From assembly GCA_963754875.1 (NCBI GenBank), contig CAVWHO010000016.1, positions 96,001 through 160,000 of the forward strand: a stretch of DNA of 64,000 nucleotides, read 5' to 3'. Below are positions 2 through 10,641 of the stretch, one piece after another (within the stretch, counting starts at the first letter, position 1; each line of letters starts with the position of its first letter). Origin of the DNA: Nitrospirota bacterium (GTDB taxonomy: Bacteria > Nitrospirota > UBA9217). A model generated the notes under the pieces. The model was not told where the DNA came from. It did no database searches and saw only the letters and a list, made by a program, of their open reading frames with translations. The position numbers were made by a program, and so were the translations under genes.

Positions 2-3000
2 AAGGCCCGTCTCTCAACAGGACGCGGCCGCGTATCGCCCTTTGCTCTGTTCCCGGTGGAGCCCGGAGGTACGCCCGCCACGCTCGACAGGGACTATGAA
101 TCCTTCTGCAGAGCGCCCGGCGCTCCGCATATATCGGGTAGCTTCCTCCTGTCTGCATTCGACCGGGCATTGCGTTTTGTCCCTGAAGTGCAGCTCCATG
201 ACGCCCGCCTCCGAAACCGCTGGACCGAACTCACTGATTGGTTCAAACAGAACTGCCGCGACAAGAAATTCGAGGGACTTTTTATCGAACGGTATATCGA
301 GAAAATCCACGGCCTTCCTGACGAGGTCATCGATGCCGTCAAGAACAATAAGTGGCTCGCCACGTACGTTCCGAAATCCGAGGACGGGCTCGGATGGCGC
401 AAGGCTGAATATTACATCCTGAATTCCGCGGCAGGGAGCTTCGGTGACGCAGGCATCGATCTCCTCATCATGGCAAGCACGAGCATCGGCACAACACCCA
501 TTCTCCTGGGACTCGAGGACGAGCTGCCGCGCGTGCGCCAGGAACTGGCGCCCCTGGCACAGGATGCAGGCATTCTGGGCGAGATCAACACAAAGCTTTC
601 CAGGATCATCGGGATGTTCTCGAACCCCAACCCGTCCCTGATCAGGAAAGAATACGAAGCGCTGATAAAACTCGTGGACGTCCGGGTCCGCCGCACCCGA
701 GTGGTCAAGTATCTGGCCGCAAATTTCCTGCGCGCTTTTTACAGCGCAGGCATTGCAGGCAGGCGCGGCGATTTCAGCGGGTTCACTGCAAACCTCAAAC
801 ACGCAGGCGGCCTTTTCGAAAACATCATGCCCGATGTCCGTGCCGCCCTGGAAGAACTTCCTCGGCGCGAGCGATGCCATAAACTTTTCCTCCGTTATCT
901 TGGCCACGGCGGCGTGAGCGCCTTTGCTCTTACTGAACCGACCGCGGGCTCGGACTCCGGCGGTGTCAAGACCACGGCGAAGTTAGAGACGATAAAACTC
1001 CTTCCCCGTGATGACGGAAGGTATGCTTTCCAGCTTGACGGGCAGAACGACAAAAGCGAGCGCTATTTGATCGACGCAGACAAGATTGCCTTTACCGATC
1101 GGGGTATCTCATATCAGACGCCGGACGGGCAGTCTGCGTTAATTCAATATGACCGCTATGATTATGCAACTGACCAGGGGACGAGATACTACCTGTACCA
1201 GGGGAACGTCTGCGAGTTCCATGACATCGGCCAGGTGCGAAAGACCAATGCCGGGCTTACGTATGAGTATTACAGCCTGACCGGTGCGAAGATGTGGATC
1301 ACGAACGGAAGCATCGCGACCCAATTTTCCCTTTTTGCCCAGACAAACGAAGGCGTCACAGGTTTCATGGTGGACCGGCACAGCGAAGGACTCAAGGTCG
1401 GGGCGGACGAAGAAAAAATGGGGCAGCGAGGCTCGCCTACGAACGAAATCTCGATCGACGCTGTGCGCGTTCCGCGCGAGGCCGTGATCGGCTACGAAGG
1501 CCACGGCCAGGTGAATGCCCTCGAAACGCTGAACGTCGGGCGCTGCGGTCTTTCCGTCGTGTCCGGCGCGCTCAGTCGCAAGCTGTTGGAAGAAGCACGC
1601 CGAAATATTCCCTCAACGCCGGAGCGGGACCGATTGCTCGGCGAAGCTGCAGCGATCATGTTCGGCAGCGAGTCCCTTGCCTACTACCTCGTAGGCCTAT
1701 TCGACCGGCCTCACGAGTCGGTCCGCATGGAGTCAGCAATTGCAAAATATGTCTGCTCCGACGATATCCATGAACTCATCTCGCTCGTCGAGTATGCCTA
1801 CGGCCCCTCCGGCCAGACGGAAAAGTTCCTGCTCGAAAAAGCGCGGCGCGATGCGCGCATCCTGACCATCTACGAAGGAACGAATGAAGTGCAGCGATTT
1901 TTGATCCTGAAGGACCTGATCGCCATGGCCCCAGCCTGGTCCGAGATACCCGTGCCGCAGGATGATCCCGCATCACGAACGCTTGCAGAATGGAAGAACA
2001 AGCTGAGAAACCAGGTGAAGGAAGCGGCCCGCTTGCTCGGCGATGCGTCGTGGTCCGACGCGATGCTCCAGCCCGCACTTTTCCCAATTGCCGATACGGC
2101 GGGTGAGGTCCTGCGGCTTGACTGCATATACTACCGCATGGAGTGGCTCGAACAGCAAAGAGCGGTCCTCGAACAGGGAGATCGGGACTACGTGCTCGAT
2201 CTCCTTGATGCCGGCAATCGCGCTGCAGAAAGGTCCCTCGCGCGGCTTGCTTATCTCGACAAAAAGTACTCCTCTGCCCTGGCGCTCCTCCGGGAAAACA
2301 ACACTATGCCCGAGGTACGCGCTGCGGATGCCGCCCTTGATGCTTTTGCGGAACACGAAAGGGTGGCTGGCCCTTCTCCCGGCAGCGTGCGGGCCCAACT
2401 GAACTGCCTCGTCATTGTCCGGCCCGTTGCCGAACTTTCTCCGCGCCCGAGGATCGCGGACAACGCGCTTCAGGAGATCCTGTGGCAACTTGATCCATGC
2501 GATCTTTCCGGTCTGGTCCAAATGCGGGAACTCAAACAAGCAAGCGATTCCAGCCTGACCATCGACGTGCTCATGCCCGGCGGCCCCGAGTTTGATCATC
2601 TTTTGAGAACAGCGGCAGGCGCCCGCGCAGACAACCTCCTTCGCCTTGCTGTCGATCCTGCGGCAGGTCCGGGATCTTACGTGAAGGCCGTGAAAGACCT
2701 CGAAGTGCTGAGACCATACGATCTCATCGTGATTGGTGCAGACTGCCTCGATGGCGACCGGAGTCTCGGCGCCTATTTGGCAGGATGTTTCAAGAAGAAC
2801 CTTTACCGCAGAGACCGAATCGAAGCCAAACCGGACGGGACCGGCTTGACCCGTGTCGTACTGCCGGCAGTGATCAGCATGACCTCGCCAGTGAAGGACA
2901 AGGGCTGCGACATGAAATCGGCCGTAGCCGCCGCCTTTTCGATTATACGGGTAATCGGGCCTTCGATGAATGAGCCATCGACCGAGCCCGGTCGTTACGA

Positions 3001-4138
3001 ACGAGTATCCGGGAAAGAAACCATTGCGCAGACTGTGACGGACACGGCTTCGGCAGCGGTCTATCTCAAGGAGTTTGCAGCTTCAGCGAGTGCTGCAGCT
3101 GCCGGAGAGTATGCCGGTCCGGTAAAGAAGGGAACGTTTGCGCAGGACAGTGCGGTCTGGGCTTTGCTCGGACCTCATGAGCAGAAATCCAACATCGCGG
3201 TGCTCCGTGCTGCACGGCTTGCTGCCGACCTTACTGGCAGGAAGGCGCGTGCCGTCATCCCCGCACCGAGAGGAATGTGGCCAGCTCTCCTCGGGCTTGC
3301 AAAAGCCCAGGGGTGTGAGCAGGCATTCTGTGTGGACACGCAGGACAATAGGTTGTCGAGTGAGGGAAAGCGAAAAATCGTCCGCGTTGTCCAAAAGACA
3401 GCGGACGAGACATTTCTCTGTGCAGGGCCGGAATGGACAGGCGCATTCGCCTACGCCGGCGGCGAGTCCGACAACCCCAAGTCGCCTGTCCTTCTCTGCT
3501 CCGGAGTTACGGGAATTGAAAAAGGAGGGACCGGCTCTCTCGCCTTTGCGCTTCAGTCCTATGAAGGTAAACTCGTCCGGCGTTTAGTGCAGAAACGCGG
3601 TTCTTCTTTCATCACCACTGTCCCTGAAGCAGATTTCCCTGTTGCTCCGGAAGCGTTGACGTTCGACGCCGCAGTCCTCGACTTTGCAATTGACCCCGAA
3701 TTACTCATGCCTTTGCCGCCCGTAGCAGCCCCAACGCTCTCGCAGGCGGACGTTATCATCGATCTCGGTTACGGTATCAAGGATAAGGCGGGGCGTGAAC
3801 TGGCGGAAAAACTCAGGACAAAACTCGAGGCACTGGGACTCGCACCGATGTTCGGCGCAACGCGCAAGGTGACGCAGGACTTGAAGCTCCTGCCGCTGGA
3901 CGCCCAGATCGGCCAGACGGGCATCCGCGTCAACCCGAAGCTCATCATTGCGCTCGGCATCTCGGGCGCGCCGCAGCATATCGACTACGTCGGCACACGC
4001 GCGGAGATTCTCTGCTTCAATAAAGACCCCGAGGCTCCGCTCATGAAGCTGAACCAGACGAGGCCTTCACCGCGCGTTCATCCCATCGTGGGTGATCTTT
4101 TCGTGACGGTGCGGGAGATCATCGCCAGGCTTTCGTAA
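2..4138 (+). CDS. Acyl-CoA dehydrogenase fused to ETF beta and ETF alpha domains (5' end probably outside the window)
   Basis: ACAD motifs FALTEPTAGSD, GAKMWITNG, EEKMGQRGSPT, RILTIYEGTNEVQR; ETFbeta-like IVRPVAE...LDPCD...IVIGADCLDGD; ETFalpha FAD motifs ADVIIDLGYGI, GATRKV, QIGQTG, GISGAPQH, NKDPEAP. The frame is open from position 2 to the ORF-track start at 56. Confidence 0.9.
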   Translation, partial: KARLSTGRGRVSPFALFPVEPGGTPATLDRDYESFCRAPGAPHISGSFLLSAFDRALRFVPEVQLHDARLRNRWTELTDWFKQNCRDKKFEGLFIERYIEKIHGLPDEVIDAVKNNKWLATYVPKSEDGLGWRKAEYYILNSAAGSFGDAGIDLLIMASTSIGTTPILLGLEDELPRVRQELAPLAQDAGILGEINTKLSRIIGMFSNPNPSLIRKEYEALIKLVDVRVRRTRVVKYLAANFLRAFYSAGIAGRRGDFSGFTANLKHAGGLFENIMPDVRAALEELPRRERCHKLFLRYLGHGGVSAFALTEPTAGSDSGGVKTTAKLETIKLLPRDDGRYAFQLDGQNDKSERYLIDADKIAFTDRGISYQTPDGQSALIQYDRYDYATDQGTRYYLYQGNVCEFHDIGQVRKTNAGLTYEYYSLTGAKMWITNGSIATQFSLFAQTNEGVTGFMVDRHSEGLKVGADEEKMGQRGSPTNEISIDAVRVPREAVIGYEGHGQVNALETLNVGRCGLSVVSGALSRKLLEEARRNIPSTPERDRLLGEAAAIMFGSESLAYYLVGLFDRPHESVRMESAIAKYVCSDDIHELISLVEYAYGPSGQTEKFLLEKARRDARILTIYEGTNEVQRFLILKDLIAMAPAWSEIPVPQDDPASRTLAEWKNKLRNQVKEAARLLGDASWSDAMLQPALFPIADTAGEVLRLDCIYYRMEWLEQQRAVLEQGDRDYVLDLLDAGNRAAERSLARLAYLDKKYSSALALLRENNTMPEVRAADAALDAFAEHERVAGPSPGSVRAQLNCLVIVRPVAELSPRPRIADNALQEILWQLDPCDLSGLVQMRELKQASDSSLTIDVLMPGGPEFDHLLRTAAGARADNLLRLAVDPAAGPGSYVKAVKDLEVLRPYDLIVIGADCLDGDRSLGAYLAGCFKKNLYRRDRIEAKPDGTGLTRVVLPAVISMTSPVKDKGCDMKSAVAAAFSIIRVIGPSMNEPSTEPGRYERVSGKETIAQTVTDTASAAVYLKEFAASASAAAAGEYAGPVKKGTFAQDSAVWALLGPHEQKSNIAVLRAARLAADLTGRKARAVIPAPRGMWPALLGLAKAQGCEQAFCVDTQDNRLSSEGKRKIVRVVQKTADETFLCAGPEWTGAFAYAGGESDNPKSPVLLCSGVTGIEKGGTGSLAFALQSYEGKLVRRLVQKRGSSFITTVPEADFPVAPEALTFDAAVLDFAIDPELLMPLPPVAAPTLSQADVIIDLGYGIKDKAGRELAEKLRTKLEALGLAPMFGATRKVTQDLKLLPLDAQIGQTGIRVNPKLIIALGISGAPQHIDYVGTRAEILCFNKDPEAPLMKLNQTRPSPRVHPIVGDLFVTVREIIARLS

Positions 4139-4510: not shown

Positions 4511-5161
4511 CTACTGCCCCCCGCGCACAGGCCATACATAGAAATATCTGGTCTTATTGAGGTATTTCATGTTGCCCCAGACCATGTCGACGGCCCATGC
4601 CATGGCTGCATCGTTGGTATACGAGGTAGACGACCAATAGAAGTCGCTGGCCCGTACATTGGTGAATCCCTGGCTATTCAGCCATTCGGCGGTATTGGTC
4701 TGAGCGTTGTTAACAAGGCTTCCTATCTCCTTGAAGTTCGGCAAGCGCCAGTCATTATGTCCCAGGTATTTTTCAGCATTCAGTTTTGCCACATAATCAA
4801 GGGCATGCTGCCATGTAACCGCTCCGACGAATGTCTGGCTTTCTTTCCAATTAGGATCTCTTGTCTGCATAAGATTGCCGTTGGGCGCCCAGACAAGCCC
4901 CGTTAGATTGTCGGTAACCGTGGTATCAGCGTTTGCGGTAAACCGCTGAGTCGGCCAGGCAGCGCCTTTTTGCAGTTCTCCATCCTGCCCTGTATTCGTA
5001 CAGGATATGACGTTGCCTGAGCTGTCATAACAAGTCGTCTGGCCGGTCTTGGGAAGTCTGATTGCGGTATCCTTACTTCCACCATTGCCTACACTGACAA
5101 TACCCGTCACTATAATAACCGGCAATAATGCCGCAAACCAAAAGCCCTGTCGTACTTTCAT
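4511..5161 (-). CDS. DUF1566 (Lcl C-terminal) domain exported protein
   Basis: N-terminal hydrophobic segment; LPKTGQTTCY, TVTDNLTGLVW, GHNDWRLPN..E, YWSST and VWPVR motifs. Confidence 0.85.
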   Translation of the reverse strand: MKVRQGFWFAALLPVIIVTGIVSVGNGGSKDTAIRLPKTGQTTCYDSSGNVISCTNTGQDGELQKGAAWPTQRFTANADTTVTDNLTGLVWAPNGNLMQTRDPNWKESQTFVGAVTWQHALDYVAKLNAEKYLGHNDWRLPNFKEIGSLVNNAQTNTAEWLNSQGFTNVRASDFYWSSTSYTNDAAMAWAVDMVWGNMKYLNKTRYFYVWPVRGGQ

Positions 5162-5217
5162 GTCATAACCTCCCTATATTGAAATTAATCGATACGCTGT
5201 TAATGTCTACGACCATT

Positions 5218-5406
5218 TCATCGTATTTCCGTCTTGAAAAGCCAGCCCTGCGTCAACGTTATCAAAGCGGGCAGATACAGTATCGTCATTAAAGCGCTTA
5301 ACAGCATCATGCTGACGATGAAAGCGCCCACCGTAATATAGGTGTAGACCTGGCACAGTTCGTCATGGACGCACATGATCGACACATTTTTTACTATTTT
5401 GGTCAT
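5218..5406 (-). pseudogene. Chimeric remnant: DsrE-like N-terminus joined to an MMPL/RND transporter-like last TM helix
   Basis: AAGGAG RBS plus ATG at 5406 gives MTKIVKNVSIMCVHDELCQVY, then YITVGAFIVSMMLLSALMTILYLPALITL, resembling an MMPL C-terminus. Too short for either parent. Confidence 0.45.
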
Positions 5407-5746
5407 AGTGTTTCTCCTTATACATGCCAAGTTCTTTTCTCCCTGTAACCGGAGCATCACCAAAAAGCTGTTCCAGGCCATCCTGCATCAGGCTGCATGC
5501 CTGACAAATTTTCTTGTTGGCGATTCCATAATAAACATTCGTGCCTTCTCTTCTTGTCGTGACGATGCGCTCCATGCGCATGAGGGCCAGGTGCTGCAAC
5601 GAATTCGCCTTTGAAACTCCGAGTTTTTCGGTGATCTCGCCGGCAGTCAGTTCGCCTTCTCTAAGCAGGCAGAGTATCTCAAGCCTCGTGGGATTGGGAA
5701 ATATCTTGCAAAAATCAGCGTGCAGCTTCAATATCTCTTTCTTCAT
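5363..5746 (-). CDS. ArsR/SmtB-family transcriptional regulator
   Basis: MKKEILKLHADFCKIFPNPTRLEILCLLREGELTAGEI...SKAN..QHLALMR...RREGTNVYY; ATG at 5746 overlaps the upstream TGA (ATGA). The ORF track fuses it to the SQR fragment frame. Confidence 0.85.
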   Translation of the reverse strand: MKKEILKLHADFCKIFPNPTRLEILCLLREGELTAGEITEKLGVSKANSLQHLALMRMERIVTTRREGTNVYYGIANKKICQACSLMQDGLEQLFGDAPVTGRKELGMYKEKHYDQNSKKCVDHVRP

Positions 5747-6245
5747 GGCAGATTGCTGAACCCCCTCTTCATCTTCCAGAGGAAGTATTTCTCGAACCGG
5801 ACCTTCATCCACTTCGCCCAGATGGTCTTCTTCGAATAGGAACTCTGGCGCGGCGGAAGCACGGGATAGGCCTTCATGTATGCGGCTGTGTTTCCCATGT
5901 CCATGAGACAAACCACGCCGATTTCCGACGGAGGAGGCGGGGTCTTCCCGGTGATGCCGGCAGCGATAGTTGCCGCGGCAATCTTCGCCATCTTCACCGT
6001 CATAAATCCGGTCTTGGGAACGCCCCGTCGGCACCGGCGTCGCCTCCGGCGGTGCGATGGCCATGGTAACGCCGATGGCAAAAATATTTTTAAATTTCGT
6101 GTGACGATAGTTCTTGTCAACCGGGATGAACCCGCGGGGATTTCCCAACGGCATGACGGCAGGCACGCCTTTGAACGGCGGCGCGATCATGGCGAGTTTG
6201 AAGGGTAGCTTTGTGCCGTCCTTGAGTTTGATTTCTCCGGGCGTC
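5743..6245 (-). pseudogene. sqr: Sulfide:quinone oxidoreductase C-terminal fragment (5'-truncated, one frameshift near 6025)
   Basis: AMIAPPFKG...GFIPVDKNYRHTKFKNIFAIGV...TPVPTG then VPKTGFMT...VCLMDMG...PVLPPRQ...WMKVRFEKYFLWK across two frames. The N-terminal FAD-binding half is absent. Confidence 0.8.
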
Positions 6246-6413
6246 TTACGCCCGATTGCAGGGCCGGCGGGAGATCTTTTCCCACGTATCCCCGTCCACC
6301 TCATTAATATACTCTTTGATCGAAAAAACTTTGCCGCACGACGTGCAGCGGAAGGTGATTGTTTTTCAGCCGATGCGGAGTTCGACTTCTTTGCCGCAGA
6401 TCTTACACTTCAT
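6246..6413 (-). CDS. Dual CXXC motif small selenoprotein candidate (Sec at codon 16), not in the ORF track
   Basis: GAGG RBS, ATG at 6413; MKCKICGKEVELRIG-[TGA 6368-6366]-KTITFRCTSCGKVFSIKEYINEVDGDTWEKISRRPCNRA-TAA; two CxxC motifs flank the TGA; SECIS-like hairpin downstream. Confidence 0.8.
6333..6349 (-). promoter_or_regulatory. Bacterial SECIS-like hairpin
   Basis: GCUGCAC-GUC-GUGCGGC 7-bp stem starting after a 16-nt spacer from the in-frame UGA; the apical loop starts with GU, as in the bacterial SECIS consensus. Confidence 0.65.
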
Positions 6414-6438
6414 AAAAACCTCGACAAAGAACAGGTGT

Positions 6439-6519
6439 CAGCAGCCAGAATCCAGTAGTCAGGAGAACACGCCGACAATAATCGCAACCAAGCTTCTGGA
6501 TTCCAACTTCTGGCTCCTG
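6439..6519. repeat. Imperfect intergenic inverted repeat downstream of aspS
   Basis: CAGCAGCCAGAA(6439-6450)/TTCTGGCTCCTG(6508-6519) and AATCCAGTAG/CTTCTGGATT pairings. Confidence 0.5.
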
Positions 6520-6532
6520 CATACTGCGGCTC

Positions 6533-8305
6533 TTATTCCACCACATCCAGCTTGATCGACAGTTCTTTGAGCTGGGCCTGAGTCACGCGTGACGGCGCCT
6601 CGGTCATGACGCAGACGGCCTTTTGTGTTTTGGGGAAGGCAATCACGTCTCGGATCGACTGCGCGCCCGTAAGGATCGCCGTGATCCGATCGAGACCGAA
6701 GGCCAAGCCGCCGTGGGGCGGTGCGCCGTATTCGAGCGCTTCGAGCAGGAACCCGAACTTTTTCCTTGCATCTTCTTCTGCAATGTTCAGCAGGCCGAAC
6801 ATCTGTGACTGGACCTCCGACCGGTGGATACGGATGCTGCCGCCGCCGATCTCCGAGCCGTTCAACACGATATCATAGGCCTTGGCCCGTACCTTGAGCG
6901 GATCGGTTTTCATGAATTCGAAGTCTTCGTCCTTCGGCGCGGTAAAAGGATGGTGCATGGCGTCGTACCGCTTTTCATCGGCGTTCCATTCCACGAGCGG
7001 GAAGTCGGTGACCCAGAGGAAGTCCAGTTTGCTTTCGTCAATGAGGCCCAAGCGCTTAGCCACGAGCAGCCGCAGATAGCCCAGCGTCTCGGCAACAATC
7101 TTGGGGCTGTCGGCGATGAACATCATGAGGTCGCCGGGCTTTGCAGCAAGCCGCTCGGCCATGGATTTGACCTGGCCGTCTTTGAAAAATTTGGCGATCG
7201 GCGACTCAAACCCCGATGCGGTCACTTTGATCCAGGCAAGTCCTTTTGCTCCGAATACCTTTGCCTCATTCGTGAGGTCGTCCACTTCCTTGCGCGAAAG
7301 ACCGGCCATGCCGGGAGCGGCAAACCCCTTTACCTTGCCGCCGAGTTCCACGGCCTGAAGAAAGACCTTGAAGGCGGAAGCCTTGGCAATGTCGGAGATG
7401 TCCTTGAGTTCCAGCCCGAAACGCGTGTCCGGCTTGTCTGAGCCGTAGCGGTCCATGGCCACGTGATAGGGAAGACGTGGGAACGGCACGGCGATCTCGA
7501 TGCCTTTCACCTGCCGGACAACTTCAGCAACGAGCTTTTCCATGAGCGCAATGACATCGTCTTCGTCGATGAACGACATCTCAAGATCGATCTGCGTAAA
7601 CTCGGGCTGCCGGTCCGCGCGAAGGTCCTCATCGCGGAAGCACTTGACGATCTGGTAATAACGTTCGAAGCCGGCCACCATCAGGATCTGCTTGAAGAGC
7701 TGGGGCGACTGCGGAAGCGCGAAGAACATGCCGGGATTCACCCTGCTCGGAACAAGATAGTCCCGGGCGCCTTCGGGCGTGCTCTTCGTGAGGAAGGGTG
7801 TTTCGATGTCTACGAAGCCGTTGCTGTCGAGGAAGCGCCTCACGGTCTGGGTGATCTGATGGCGCGTGATCAGGACCTTTTGCAGGCTCGGCCGCCGCAA
7901 GTCAAGATAGCGGTACTTGAGCCTCAGCATCTCTGCGACATCTGTTTCGTCTTCGATCATGAAAGGAGGTGTCTTTGCCTGATTCAGGACCGTCAAATCG
8001 GTCACGAGCACTTCGATCTCGCCGGTCGGGAGCTTGGAGTTCACGGTATTGCCCGGCCGGGGCGCAACAGCGCCCGTGACAGCGATCACGTATTCGCTCC
8101 TGATATCATGGGCCAAAGCATGGGCATTCGATGCCGTTTCGGGGTTGAAGACCACTTGCGTGATGCCGCCCCGGTCCCTAAGGTCCACGAAGATGAGTCC
8201 GCCGTGGTCTCGTCTCGTGTGCACCCATCCCATGAGCGTCACGACAGCAGCCACGTCTTTTTTTGTCAGTTCACCGCAGGTATGCGTTTTTTTTTGTGCT
8301 TTCAC
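6533..8305 (-). CDS. aspS: Aspartate--tRNA ligase (probably non-discriminating Asp/Asn)
   Basis: [58 protein letters not shown]; likely GTG start at 8305 after GAGGGG; His in RDHGG is typical of non-discriminating AspRS. Confidence 0.97.
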
Positions 8306-8607
8306 GGGCCTGATTCCCCTCTTTCGTCGTTTCAAAAACAGGCTGGATAATAGCATCTCATACAGCACAAAGTCAAGCGCCCAATGCAGGGGAACAGCGC
8401 CACGCGCCCCTGAAATCGCTGTCTGTCTTGAACGGGTTATGCTATAGTAAAAGACATGTCCGCCCGGATTGTCGCACTCGTGCTTGCATTCTTGCTCCAC
8501 GGTTCTGCGGGGCAGTCCCATTCCCAGCCAAAGTCCCTTATACTGAAGCTCGACTATATAGCGGAAAAGACGGACTTAAAATAGCGGTCCCTCCCACGGT
8601 CGGGGAA

Positions 8608-9919: not shown

Positions 9920-10237
9920 TCAGCCGCCCTTCAATCTATGGAAAAGACAGGCGTACAGCTGGAAGTTCGATCCCTCTTCTTCTCGTACCTTTAAATAAAA
10001 ATCACATTGCTCGCAATGCTCGAACTTCATACCGCACATTCCCTGGACCTTGCCGCTGCACAAGGTGCCCGCGATCATCCAGCAGGCTCTTCCACTGTTT
10101 TTCCCGCCGTGCACGCCATTCAGACGGGTATCCGTCGTTGCCGGGCAAACGCCCGACACGGCGGCGCGTTCACCACCGGGTTCCCTTCCACAACCCTTCA
10201 ATTCCCAGCAATTCAATTTTGTTATGACATCGTCCAC
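9920..10237 (-). CDS. Two-CW domain Cys-rich protein
   Basis: NCWELKGCGREPGG...VCPA...HGGKNSGRACWMIAGTLCSG...CEQCDF. Confidence 0.85.
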   Translation of the reverse strand: MDDVITKLNCWELKGCGREPGGERAAVSGVCPATTDTRLNGVHGGKNSGRACWMIAGTLCSGKVQGMCGMKFEHCEQCDFYLKVREEEGSNFQLYACLFHRLKGG

Positions 10238-10278: not shown

Positions 10279-10641
10279 CTATTTCTTGGGCTTCTCCTGG
10301 GGAGTGGCCGGAGCTATTGATGGAAATTTTTGTTTTTCAAGGCACCGCTCTATCCCGAGACGCGTGACCGAAAAACCCAAGGCTGAGGGTTCTTCTTCCT
10401 GTTTCACTCGTGTCATGAATTCACAGCGCCAGCAATTATGTAATTTCTGCGCATAGGTGCCTTCAATTTTTCCGCCGCACAGGGATCCCGCCACGACCCA
10501 GCATGCCCTTCCTGCGTTCTGGCCGCCGTGGGCGCCGCCCAAGTCCTGAGATGTGGACACCGGGCAGATGCCGAGTTCTTGCGCTTTATGGCCGCCAGGC
10601 TGACGTCCGCAATTCTTGAATTCCCAGCAATTCTTTTTCAT
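10279..10641 (-). CDS. Two-CW domain Cys-rich protein
   Basis: NCWEFKNCGRQPGG...ICPV...HGGQNAGRACWVVAGSLCGG...CWRCEF; GGAGGG RBS. Confidence 0.87.
   Translation of the reverse strand: MKKNCWEFKNCGRQPGGHKAQELGICPVSTSQDLGGAHGGQNAGRACWVVAGSLCGGKIEGTYAQKLHNCWRCEFMTRVKQEEEPSALGFSVTRLGIERCLEKQKFPSIAPATPQEKPKK

Follow-up and report, generated by a model that had tools for sequence, protein, structure and literature searches.

The stretch of DNA analysed here, 64,000 nt long and referred to as the window, carries on its minus strand a 55-codon gene (6246..6413, TAA included) whose internal UGA is, on the evidence of sequence, almost certainly read as selenocysteine (Sec); a selenoprotein is the expected product because the in-frame UGA is combined with a conserved hairpin and a full Sec machinery. 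The coding frame runs from an ATG at 6413-6411 to a TAA at 6248-6246, with a Shine–Dalgarno-like GAGG at 6419..6422 (minus strand) that leaves a 5-nt spacer to the start codon; GAGG-like sites also lie 5' of many relatives' genes. The UGA, predicted to specify Sec from the reading frame and the TGA/TGC column in relatives, is codon 16 (6366..6368, minus strand), and 39 open codons separate it from the TAA. The original prediction had described a hidden 55-aa frame with an RBS, an ATG, an in-frame UGA, and a PCNRA-TAA ending and had left the strand unstated; reading the minus-strand frame confirmed each of these elements, including the 39 clean codons after the UGA that supply the second CxxC. 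The plus-strand reading of 6246..6413 yielded unrelated text and was rejected as the gene. The product is a small stand-alone protein with its own RBS, start, and stop, laid out as CxxC(3,6)-x9-U16-x6-CxxC(23,26) followed by an acidic stretch and an RRPCNRA tail. The gene is single-copy in the genome, and the CxxC-x9-TGA-x6-CxxC pattern occurs once genome-wide. It is indeed invisible to the ORF caller, i.e., it is not among the window ORFs of at least 40 aa, and databases mostly store its relatives as 31–37-aa post-UGA fragments. At contig level, the gene is covered in four DNA sequencing runs from related strains.

We assigned the protein to NF041197 with a score of 58.4 bits against a cut-off of 40, spanning model positions 1-52 of 53 when Cys was substituted for U (47.9 bits for the read-through translation), which bears out the suggested membership of the 'dual CXXC motif small (seleno)protein' family; no Pfam family passed its cut-off for the 55-aa protein. 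That is, the gene is an added member of a catalogued family, in print since 2007, and not a new kind of system. PMC13188914 lists NF041197 as OS_HP3 (RxU motif) and as hypothetical protein DW (GxU); the former is a hypothetical selenoprotein predicted in 2007 by Zhang and Gladyshev (PMC1976440), and the latter name comes from PMC12013277. The gene shares with NF041197 the CxxC-x9-U/C-x6-CxxC spacing, a stand-alone length of ~55-70 aa, the downstream SECIS, and the occurrence of Sec and Cys forms, whereas it differs from OS_HP3 in being a Nitrospirota subtype (G-U before the hairpin, W44, and the RRPCNRA tail) and not the RxU form. In addition, PMC1976440 counted 0 Cys homologs for OS_HP3, whereas many are visible now, as described below. 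No paper giving the family a function was found in the literature searched, and a term search of PMC13326102 gave no match. FmdB-family selenoproteins (TIGR02605) are small zinc-ribbon selenoproteins of anaerobes, as the present protein is predicted to be; with their UxxU motif (table of PMC13188914), Sec replaces knuckle ligands, whereas the present protein has four knuckle Cys and Sec between the knuckles. FmdB membership was rejected (16.6 bits against a cut-off of 31.3; knuckles all Cys), as was HypA membership (13.6 vs 125 bits and 11.9 vs 28.9 bits).

The genome, which is 90% complete, contains selA (604 bits), selB (374 bits), selD (379 bits), and tRNA-Sec (selC); the selABCD set that had been anticipated was thus found. 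It also contains dsrA, and the host is a sulfite-respiring bacterium. The selD gene (G000:C13:53826-54737; L004/L078) has an in-frame TGA of its own (G-A-G-U-A-C-K) and is followed by an ORF that appears TusA/YedF-like by eye.

Codon 16 was then compared across homologs. Eighteen of the 19 first-fetched related loci were homologs, nearly all close relatives being labelled Nitrospirota, and TGA stood at codon 16 in 18/18. Locus L024 was rejected as a homolog. When 301 Nitrospirota genomes were scanned, NF041197 matches were found in 128; after G006, G016, and one extra row were dropped as short matches inside long frames, 126 genomes remained. One in-frame TGA was present in 128/130 near-full-length matches, and the other two had TGC. 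In an alignment of 57 distinct genes, which excluded L060 and L072, codon 16 was TGA in 55/57 and TGC in 2/57. Databases gave 137 matches, 77 of them full-length with the same spacing and mostly 54-80 aa long; at the protein level, with codons unseen, the column held Cys in 71, Trp in five, and Arg in one. These counts agree with the expectation that homologs carry TGA or Cys at this position, and Trp or Arg, named beforehand as an argument to the contrary, was limited to 6/77 database proteins. One Trp probably reflects a TGA translated with a different genetic code, because the protein clusters with Thermodesulfobacterium proteins ending exactly before that Trp; the other four Trp rows and the Arg row speak, within their limits, against recoding. 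C3, C6, U16, C23, and C26 were invariant in three family alignments (A1, A2, and A4). A metagenome pattern scan returned 118 matches, of which 39 in at least three subgroups were kept as homologs (HMM score of at least 19 bits; L119 borderline) and 79 were dropped as chance; these add breadth and not proof, because the search pattern imposed the TGA.

Two divergent types were observed alongside the main family. One subgroup (L174, L137, L114, L163, L167, L189, and L138) reads PVPT-U-G(S/A)LLWRC...W..GCGG and has its UGA and hairpin in the register of the main family; it lies downstream of an ArsR gene at two loci and upstream of DUF302 at one. L072 (G102:C1:1672647-1672763), L172, and L115 represent a second paralog type, which also contains a TGA and is close to Thermodesulfobacterium proteins that are annotated in truncated form (30 aa).

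The SECIS upper stem-loop lies at 6333..6349 (minus strand), within the codons of the second CxxC. It begins 16 nt past the UGA and has a 7-bp stem, a GUC loop of 3 nt starting 23 nt after the UGA, and a folding energy of -10.7 kcal/mol. The four bacterial SECIS consensus constraints in the Fig. 2 legend of PMC13188914 are a loop of 3-9 nt with G within its first two positions, a stem of 4-16 bp, a UGA-to-loop distance of 16-37 nt, and an MFE of <=-7.5; the hairpin passes all four, and the earlier description of a 7-bp hairpin with a GU-starting loop, a 16-nt spacer, and bacterial Sec geometry held. Taken alone, the hairpin is weak evidence for Sec insertion: its energy did not differ significantly from that of shuffled sequences (z = -0.58 to -1.77), and a loose SECIS-like rule was passed by 382/3000 random TGA sites of the genome. 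The exact geometry occurred at 39/150,148 TGA trinucleotides. Conservation in relatives raises it above chance. In 55 Sec genes, which are relatives and not independent, the Thr codon supplying the loop G was ACG in 37/37 cases versus 33/107 elsewhere in the genes, and the Arg codon just before it was CGC in 43/43 versus 74/273; the full 7-bp stem was present in 45/55, whereas 1000 synonymous resamplings preserved it in 6.2 genes on average and in no more than 14. Synonymous codon choice is constrained to preserve the hairpin. An RNAalifold consensus of 30 diverse segments retained only three pairs and showed no compensatory change. In a direct test of the named stem, 88.6% of cells were paired, more than in all slid controls, and two pairs had changed on both sides. 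We preferred the synonymous-codon test, because the metagenome rows in the pairing test had been found with a pattern fixing several stem letters.

These data also bear on the possibility that a nonsense change turned a Cys or Trp codon into the TGA, in a pseudogene or through an assembly error. The genes just downstream are decayed, as such a reading would suggest; however, the same TGA in all 18 close relatives and in 55 of the 57 genes across the phylum, the selection on the hairpin, and the complete Sec machinery make it hardly credible, and conservation effectively refutes it.

A U-rich run at 6323-6332 (minus strand) lies 3' of the hairpin, and the two together score as terminator-like. 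This feature would suit a selenium-status element, in which UGA read-through couples selenium supply to downstream selD/dsrE/SQR genes, or a small selenium store or carrier. Indeed, selD, Sec-type DsrE, TauE, and SQR genes follow the selenoprotein gene in part of this genome family, the gene is divergent from yedE/yedF/DUF3343 at two loci of another family, and it is present in 0/12 genomes of a selA-less, dsrA-positive family (f3). We nevertheless consider this function quite improbable: the U-run is poorly kept (at least five T in only 14/56 genes), most loci have no selenium genes downstream, and the many Cys forms indicate that the protein works without selenium. An Rfam scan of 5100-6700 gave only two chance-level matches, and no sigma-70-like promoter was found within 5100-6800.

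The structure of the protein was modelled in two AlphaFold runs, which gave the same elements, i.e., strands 9-14, 19-23, and 29-31 and a helix at 41-48, with modest confidence (pLDDT 73.6 and 65.0; pTM 0.49 and 0.39). The predicted fold is a three-stranded zinc ribbon, and U16 falls in the turn (residues 15-18) that links the first two strands. From ribbon topology, this turn is presumably the end away from the knuckles and the metal site. The nearest Foldseek rows were zinc ribbons (rmsd 1.6-2.0 A over ~32 residues), none of them significant; fold matches overall had E >=0.33 and Z <=3.4. Searches against sequences of solved structures gave only generic zinc-finger or ribbon matches. Known zinc ribbons (Rpb9/RPC10, ZifS/TTHA0897, LysW, and the HypA ribbon) are weak sequence or fold matches to the predicted ribbon with its two CxxC knuckles; none is significant and none is described as a selenoprotein, whereas here Sec or Cys is predicted to sit in the hairpin turn.

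Guided by this model and by sequence, we tentatively propose that the protein may relay redox equivalents or persulfide by means of a single selenol, docking through its C-terminal helix. SelB would bind the hairpin and insert Sec at the UGA, as established for bacterial Sec biology, and the predicted ribbon would hold zinc through the four CxxC cysteines. Sec16 would then serve as the protein's single reactive selenol and engage a partner protein in sulfur-redox exchange by attacking a disulfide, persulfide, or polysulfide on it; candidate partners in these anaerobes with a Dsr pathway are carriers of the DsrE/TusA/DsrC type. Docking of the partner may involve the acidic helix 41-48 together with the conserved (D/N)R-x C-terminus, and Cys52 could serve as an optional resolving residue. 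A redox nucleophile is consistent with column 16, which is predominantly Cys in database proteins and invariant alongside the four CxxC cysteines, and with the Sec/Cys swaps that occurred there repeatedly, at least three forced by well-supported branches and 16 by parsimony (64-column quick tree). At the C-terminus, D/N53 (63/72) and R54 (62/72) are better kept than C52 (53/72); Cys52 was present in 47/57 genes and in 30/77 database proteins at a fixed offset, which is insufficient conservation for an obligatory resolving role.

Alternatively, U16 could coordinate a soft metal (Ni, Cu, or Hg) or contribute to a site shared within a dimer, with the ribbon as scaffold, in a metal sensor or chaperone likened to HypA-like or Fe-rubredoxin-like small proteins. 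The second CxxC and the next helix are weakly HypA-like (E 3.3e-4, alignment A4), one homolog matched HypA with E 1.3e-5, under the cut-off, and ArsR-type regulators adjoin some members and CxxCxxCC putative metal-binding genes others. However, the HypA matches are generic zinc-knuckle matches far under the family cut-offs, no second conserved ligand lies near U16, and hyp or metal-efflux genes are not recurrent among the neighbours; we therefore regard a metal role as unlikely.

The relay proposal also draws on the distribution of the gene, which was present in 117/136 selA+dsrA+, 2/11 selA+dsrA-, 7/21 selA-dsrA+, and 0/133 Nitrospirota genomes with neither marker, counts that are confounded by kinship and incomplete bins across the 301 genomes. 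The seven dsrA-only carriers are bins 63-98% complete from families where selA is common, and the gene-positive genomes showing no dsrA (G081 and G285) are fragmented bins. Dsr alone does not bring the gene, because family f3 has dsrA in 11/12 genomes and neither selA nor the gene in any of the 12. Conversely, 19/136 selA+dsrA+ genomes are without the gene, including a one-contig genome that is 98% complete; the gene is therefore dispensable for Dsr respiration. These 19 genomes and the two carriers without visible dsrA count against a sulfur relay. Searching with a broader profile (A2) changed nothing for these 19: the 28 selA+ genomes without the gene and 11 selA-negative ones gave four weak partial matches and no true member, whereas both positive controls were detected. 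Named relatives outside Nitrospirota occur in Maridesulfovibrio, Bilophila, and Thermodesulfobacterium, which favours the sulfur link. The phylum of a Gallicola locus gave no match in 250/251 genomes and one weak partial match. A link to selenouridine synthase was rejected, as the enzyme gene was present in 0/47 genomes tested.

The gene call corrects one annotation. Beyond this, it shows that databases systematically truncate a small selenoprotein that is near-ubiquitous among sulfate/sulfite-reducing Nitrospirota; its co-occurrence with selA and dsrA, together with easily expressed natural Cys forms, makes a functional test straightforward. In a broader form of the relay proposal, the family would fill a gap in the sulfur-carrier chemistry of Dsr-respiring anaerobes, as a selenol-tipped zinc ribbon that reduces or shuttles DsrE/TusA/DsrC persulfide. 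We hold this to be doubtful; if true, a gene-caller-invisible component, mostly annotated as a fragment or as nothing, would operate in the large majority of Sec-using, dsrA-bearing genomes counted above.

Upstream of the selenoprotein gene lies aspS, encoding aspartate-tRNA ligase (6533..8521, minus strand; NF001750, 887 bits), which we treat as context rather than mechanism. The 119-nt gap between the two contains no terminator-like site, and co-transcription is plausible from this arrangement. An aspS gene was present in the flank at 36/82 loci (fetched flanks of 1 to 8 kb), and this linkage is a trait of one lineage and not of the whole NF041197 family. DsrE/F/H, SQR, TauE, or selD genes occurred in the flank of 11/36 aspS-linked loci, in support of the sulfur link; however, sulfur- or selenium-trafficking neighbours (yedE/yedF/DUF3343) were found at only 2/46 loci outside the aspS lineage, which weighs against a sulfur relay. 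Housekeeping genes of various kinds make up most of the other neighbours, and no operon is shared across the family. Bin G209 contains three different aspS-selenoprotein loci (L009, L012, and L017) on separate contigs, probably from mixed strains.

Translation genes are frequent among these neighbours (hisS, gltX/tilS, rplM, and rpsT/relA in addition to aspS), and the closest folds include zinc ribbons of RNA polymerase subunits and ribosomal proteins. Both observations would fit a redox-switched adaptor, whose basic ribbon and acidic helix would attach to RNA polymerase, the ribosome, or RNA, with U16 as the redox reporter. We find such an adaptor improbable: the fold matches are non-significant and typical of any ribbon, and the neighbours vary by lineage, as expected for a small gene within housekeeping operons.

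Downstream, a broken 3' remnant of a sulfide:quinone-reductase-like (SQR-like) gene (5746..6244, minus strand; approximately residues 230-396 by sequence comparison) starts 1 nt past the selenoprotein stop and changes frame near 6023. It is followed by an ArsR-type regulator (5363..5746, minus strand; domain scan), the last gene of the decayed cluster. Window positions 5612-6244 (minus strand) are 98% identical to contig C20 of the same genome (G000:C20:230489-233534, L076), where the cluster is intact (ArsR, Sec-type DsrE, DsrF, DsrH, and SQR) and is flanked by two transposase-like ORFs, one an IS630-like DDE transposase and the other of HTH type; the window retains just the broken SQR 3' part and ArsR. 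Read from sequence, the remnant appears to be the scar of a cluster of sulfur/selenium genes that some relatives carry after the selenoprotein gene. Contigs X1 and X2 from two other runs also join the selenoprotein gene directly to the SQR fragment; the scar is therefore likely natural. A short ORF at 5218-5481 (minus strand), with no Pfam match, has an end resembling a membrane-transporter C-terminus on an unrelated start and is likely more deletion debris. In several relatives, the selenoprotein gene is followed directly by the counterpart of a 1360-aa ORF at 56-4138 (plus strand), which we take, by eye, to be an acyl-CoA dehydrogenase fused to ETF-like domains.

The C20 cluster contains a second hidden selenoprotein of this genome. 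This DsrE-like ORF (L076:7176-7532, plus strand; G000:C20:231175-231531) has an in-frame TGA in L-U-G-G-C (UxxC) with a hairpin downstream, scores 53.7 bits against Pfam DsrE when read through, and belongs to a known selenoprotein class. Elsewhere in the window, the ORF list includes two adjacent small Cys-rich paralogs at 9920-10237 and 10279-10641 (both minus strand), with the shared motif NCWE.K.CGR.PGG...CP...G.HGG.N.GRACW..AG.LC.G...C..C.F.
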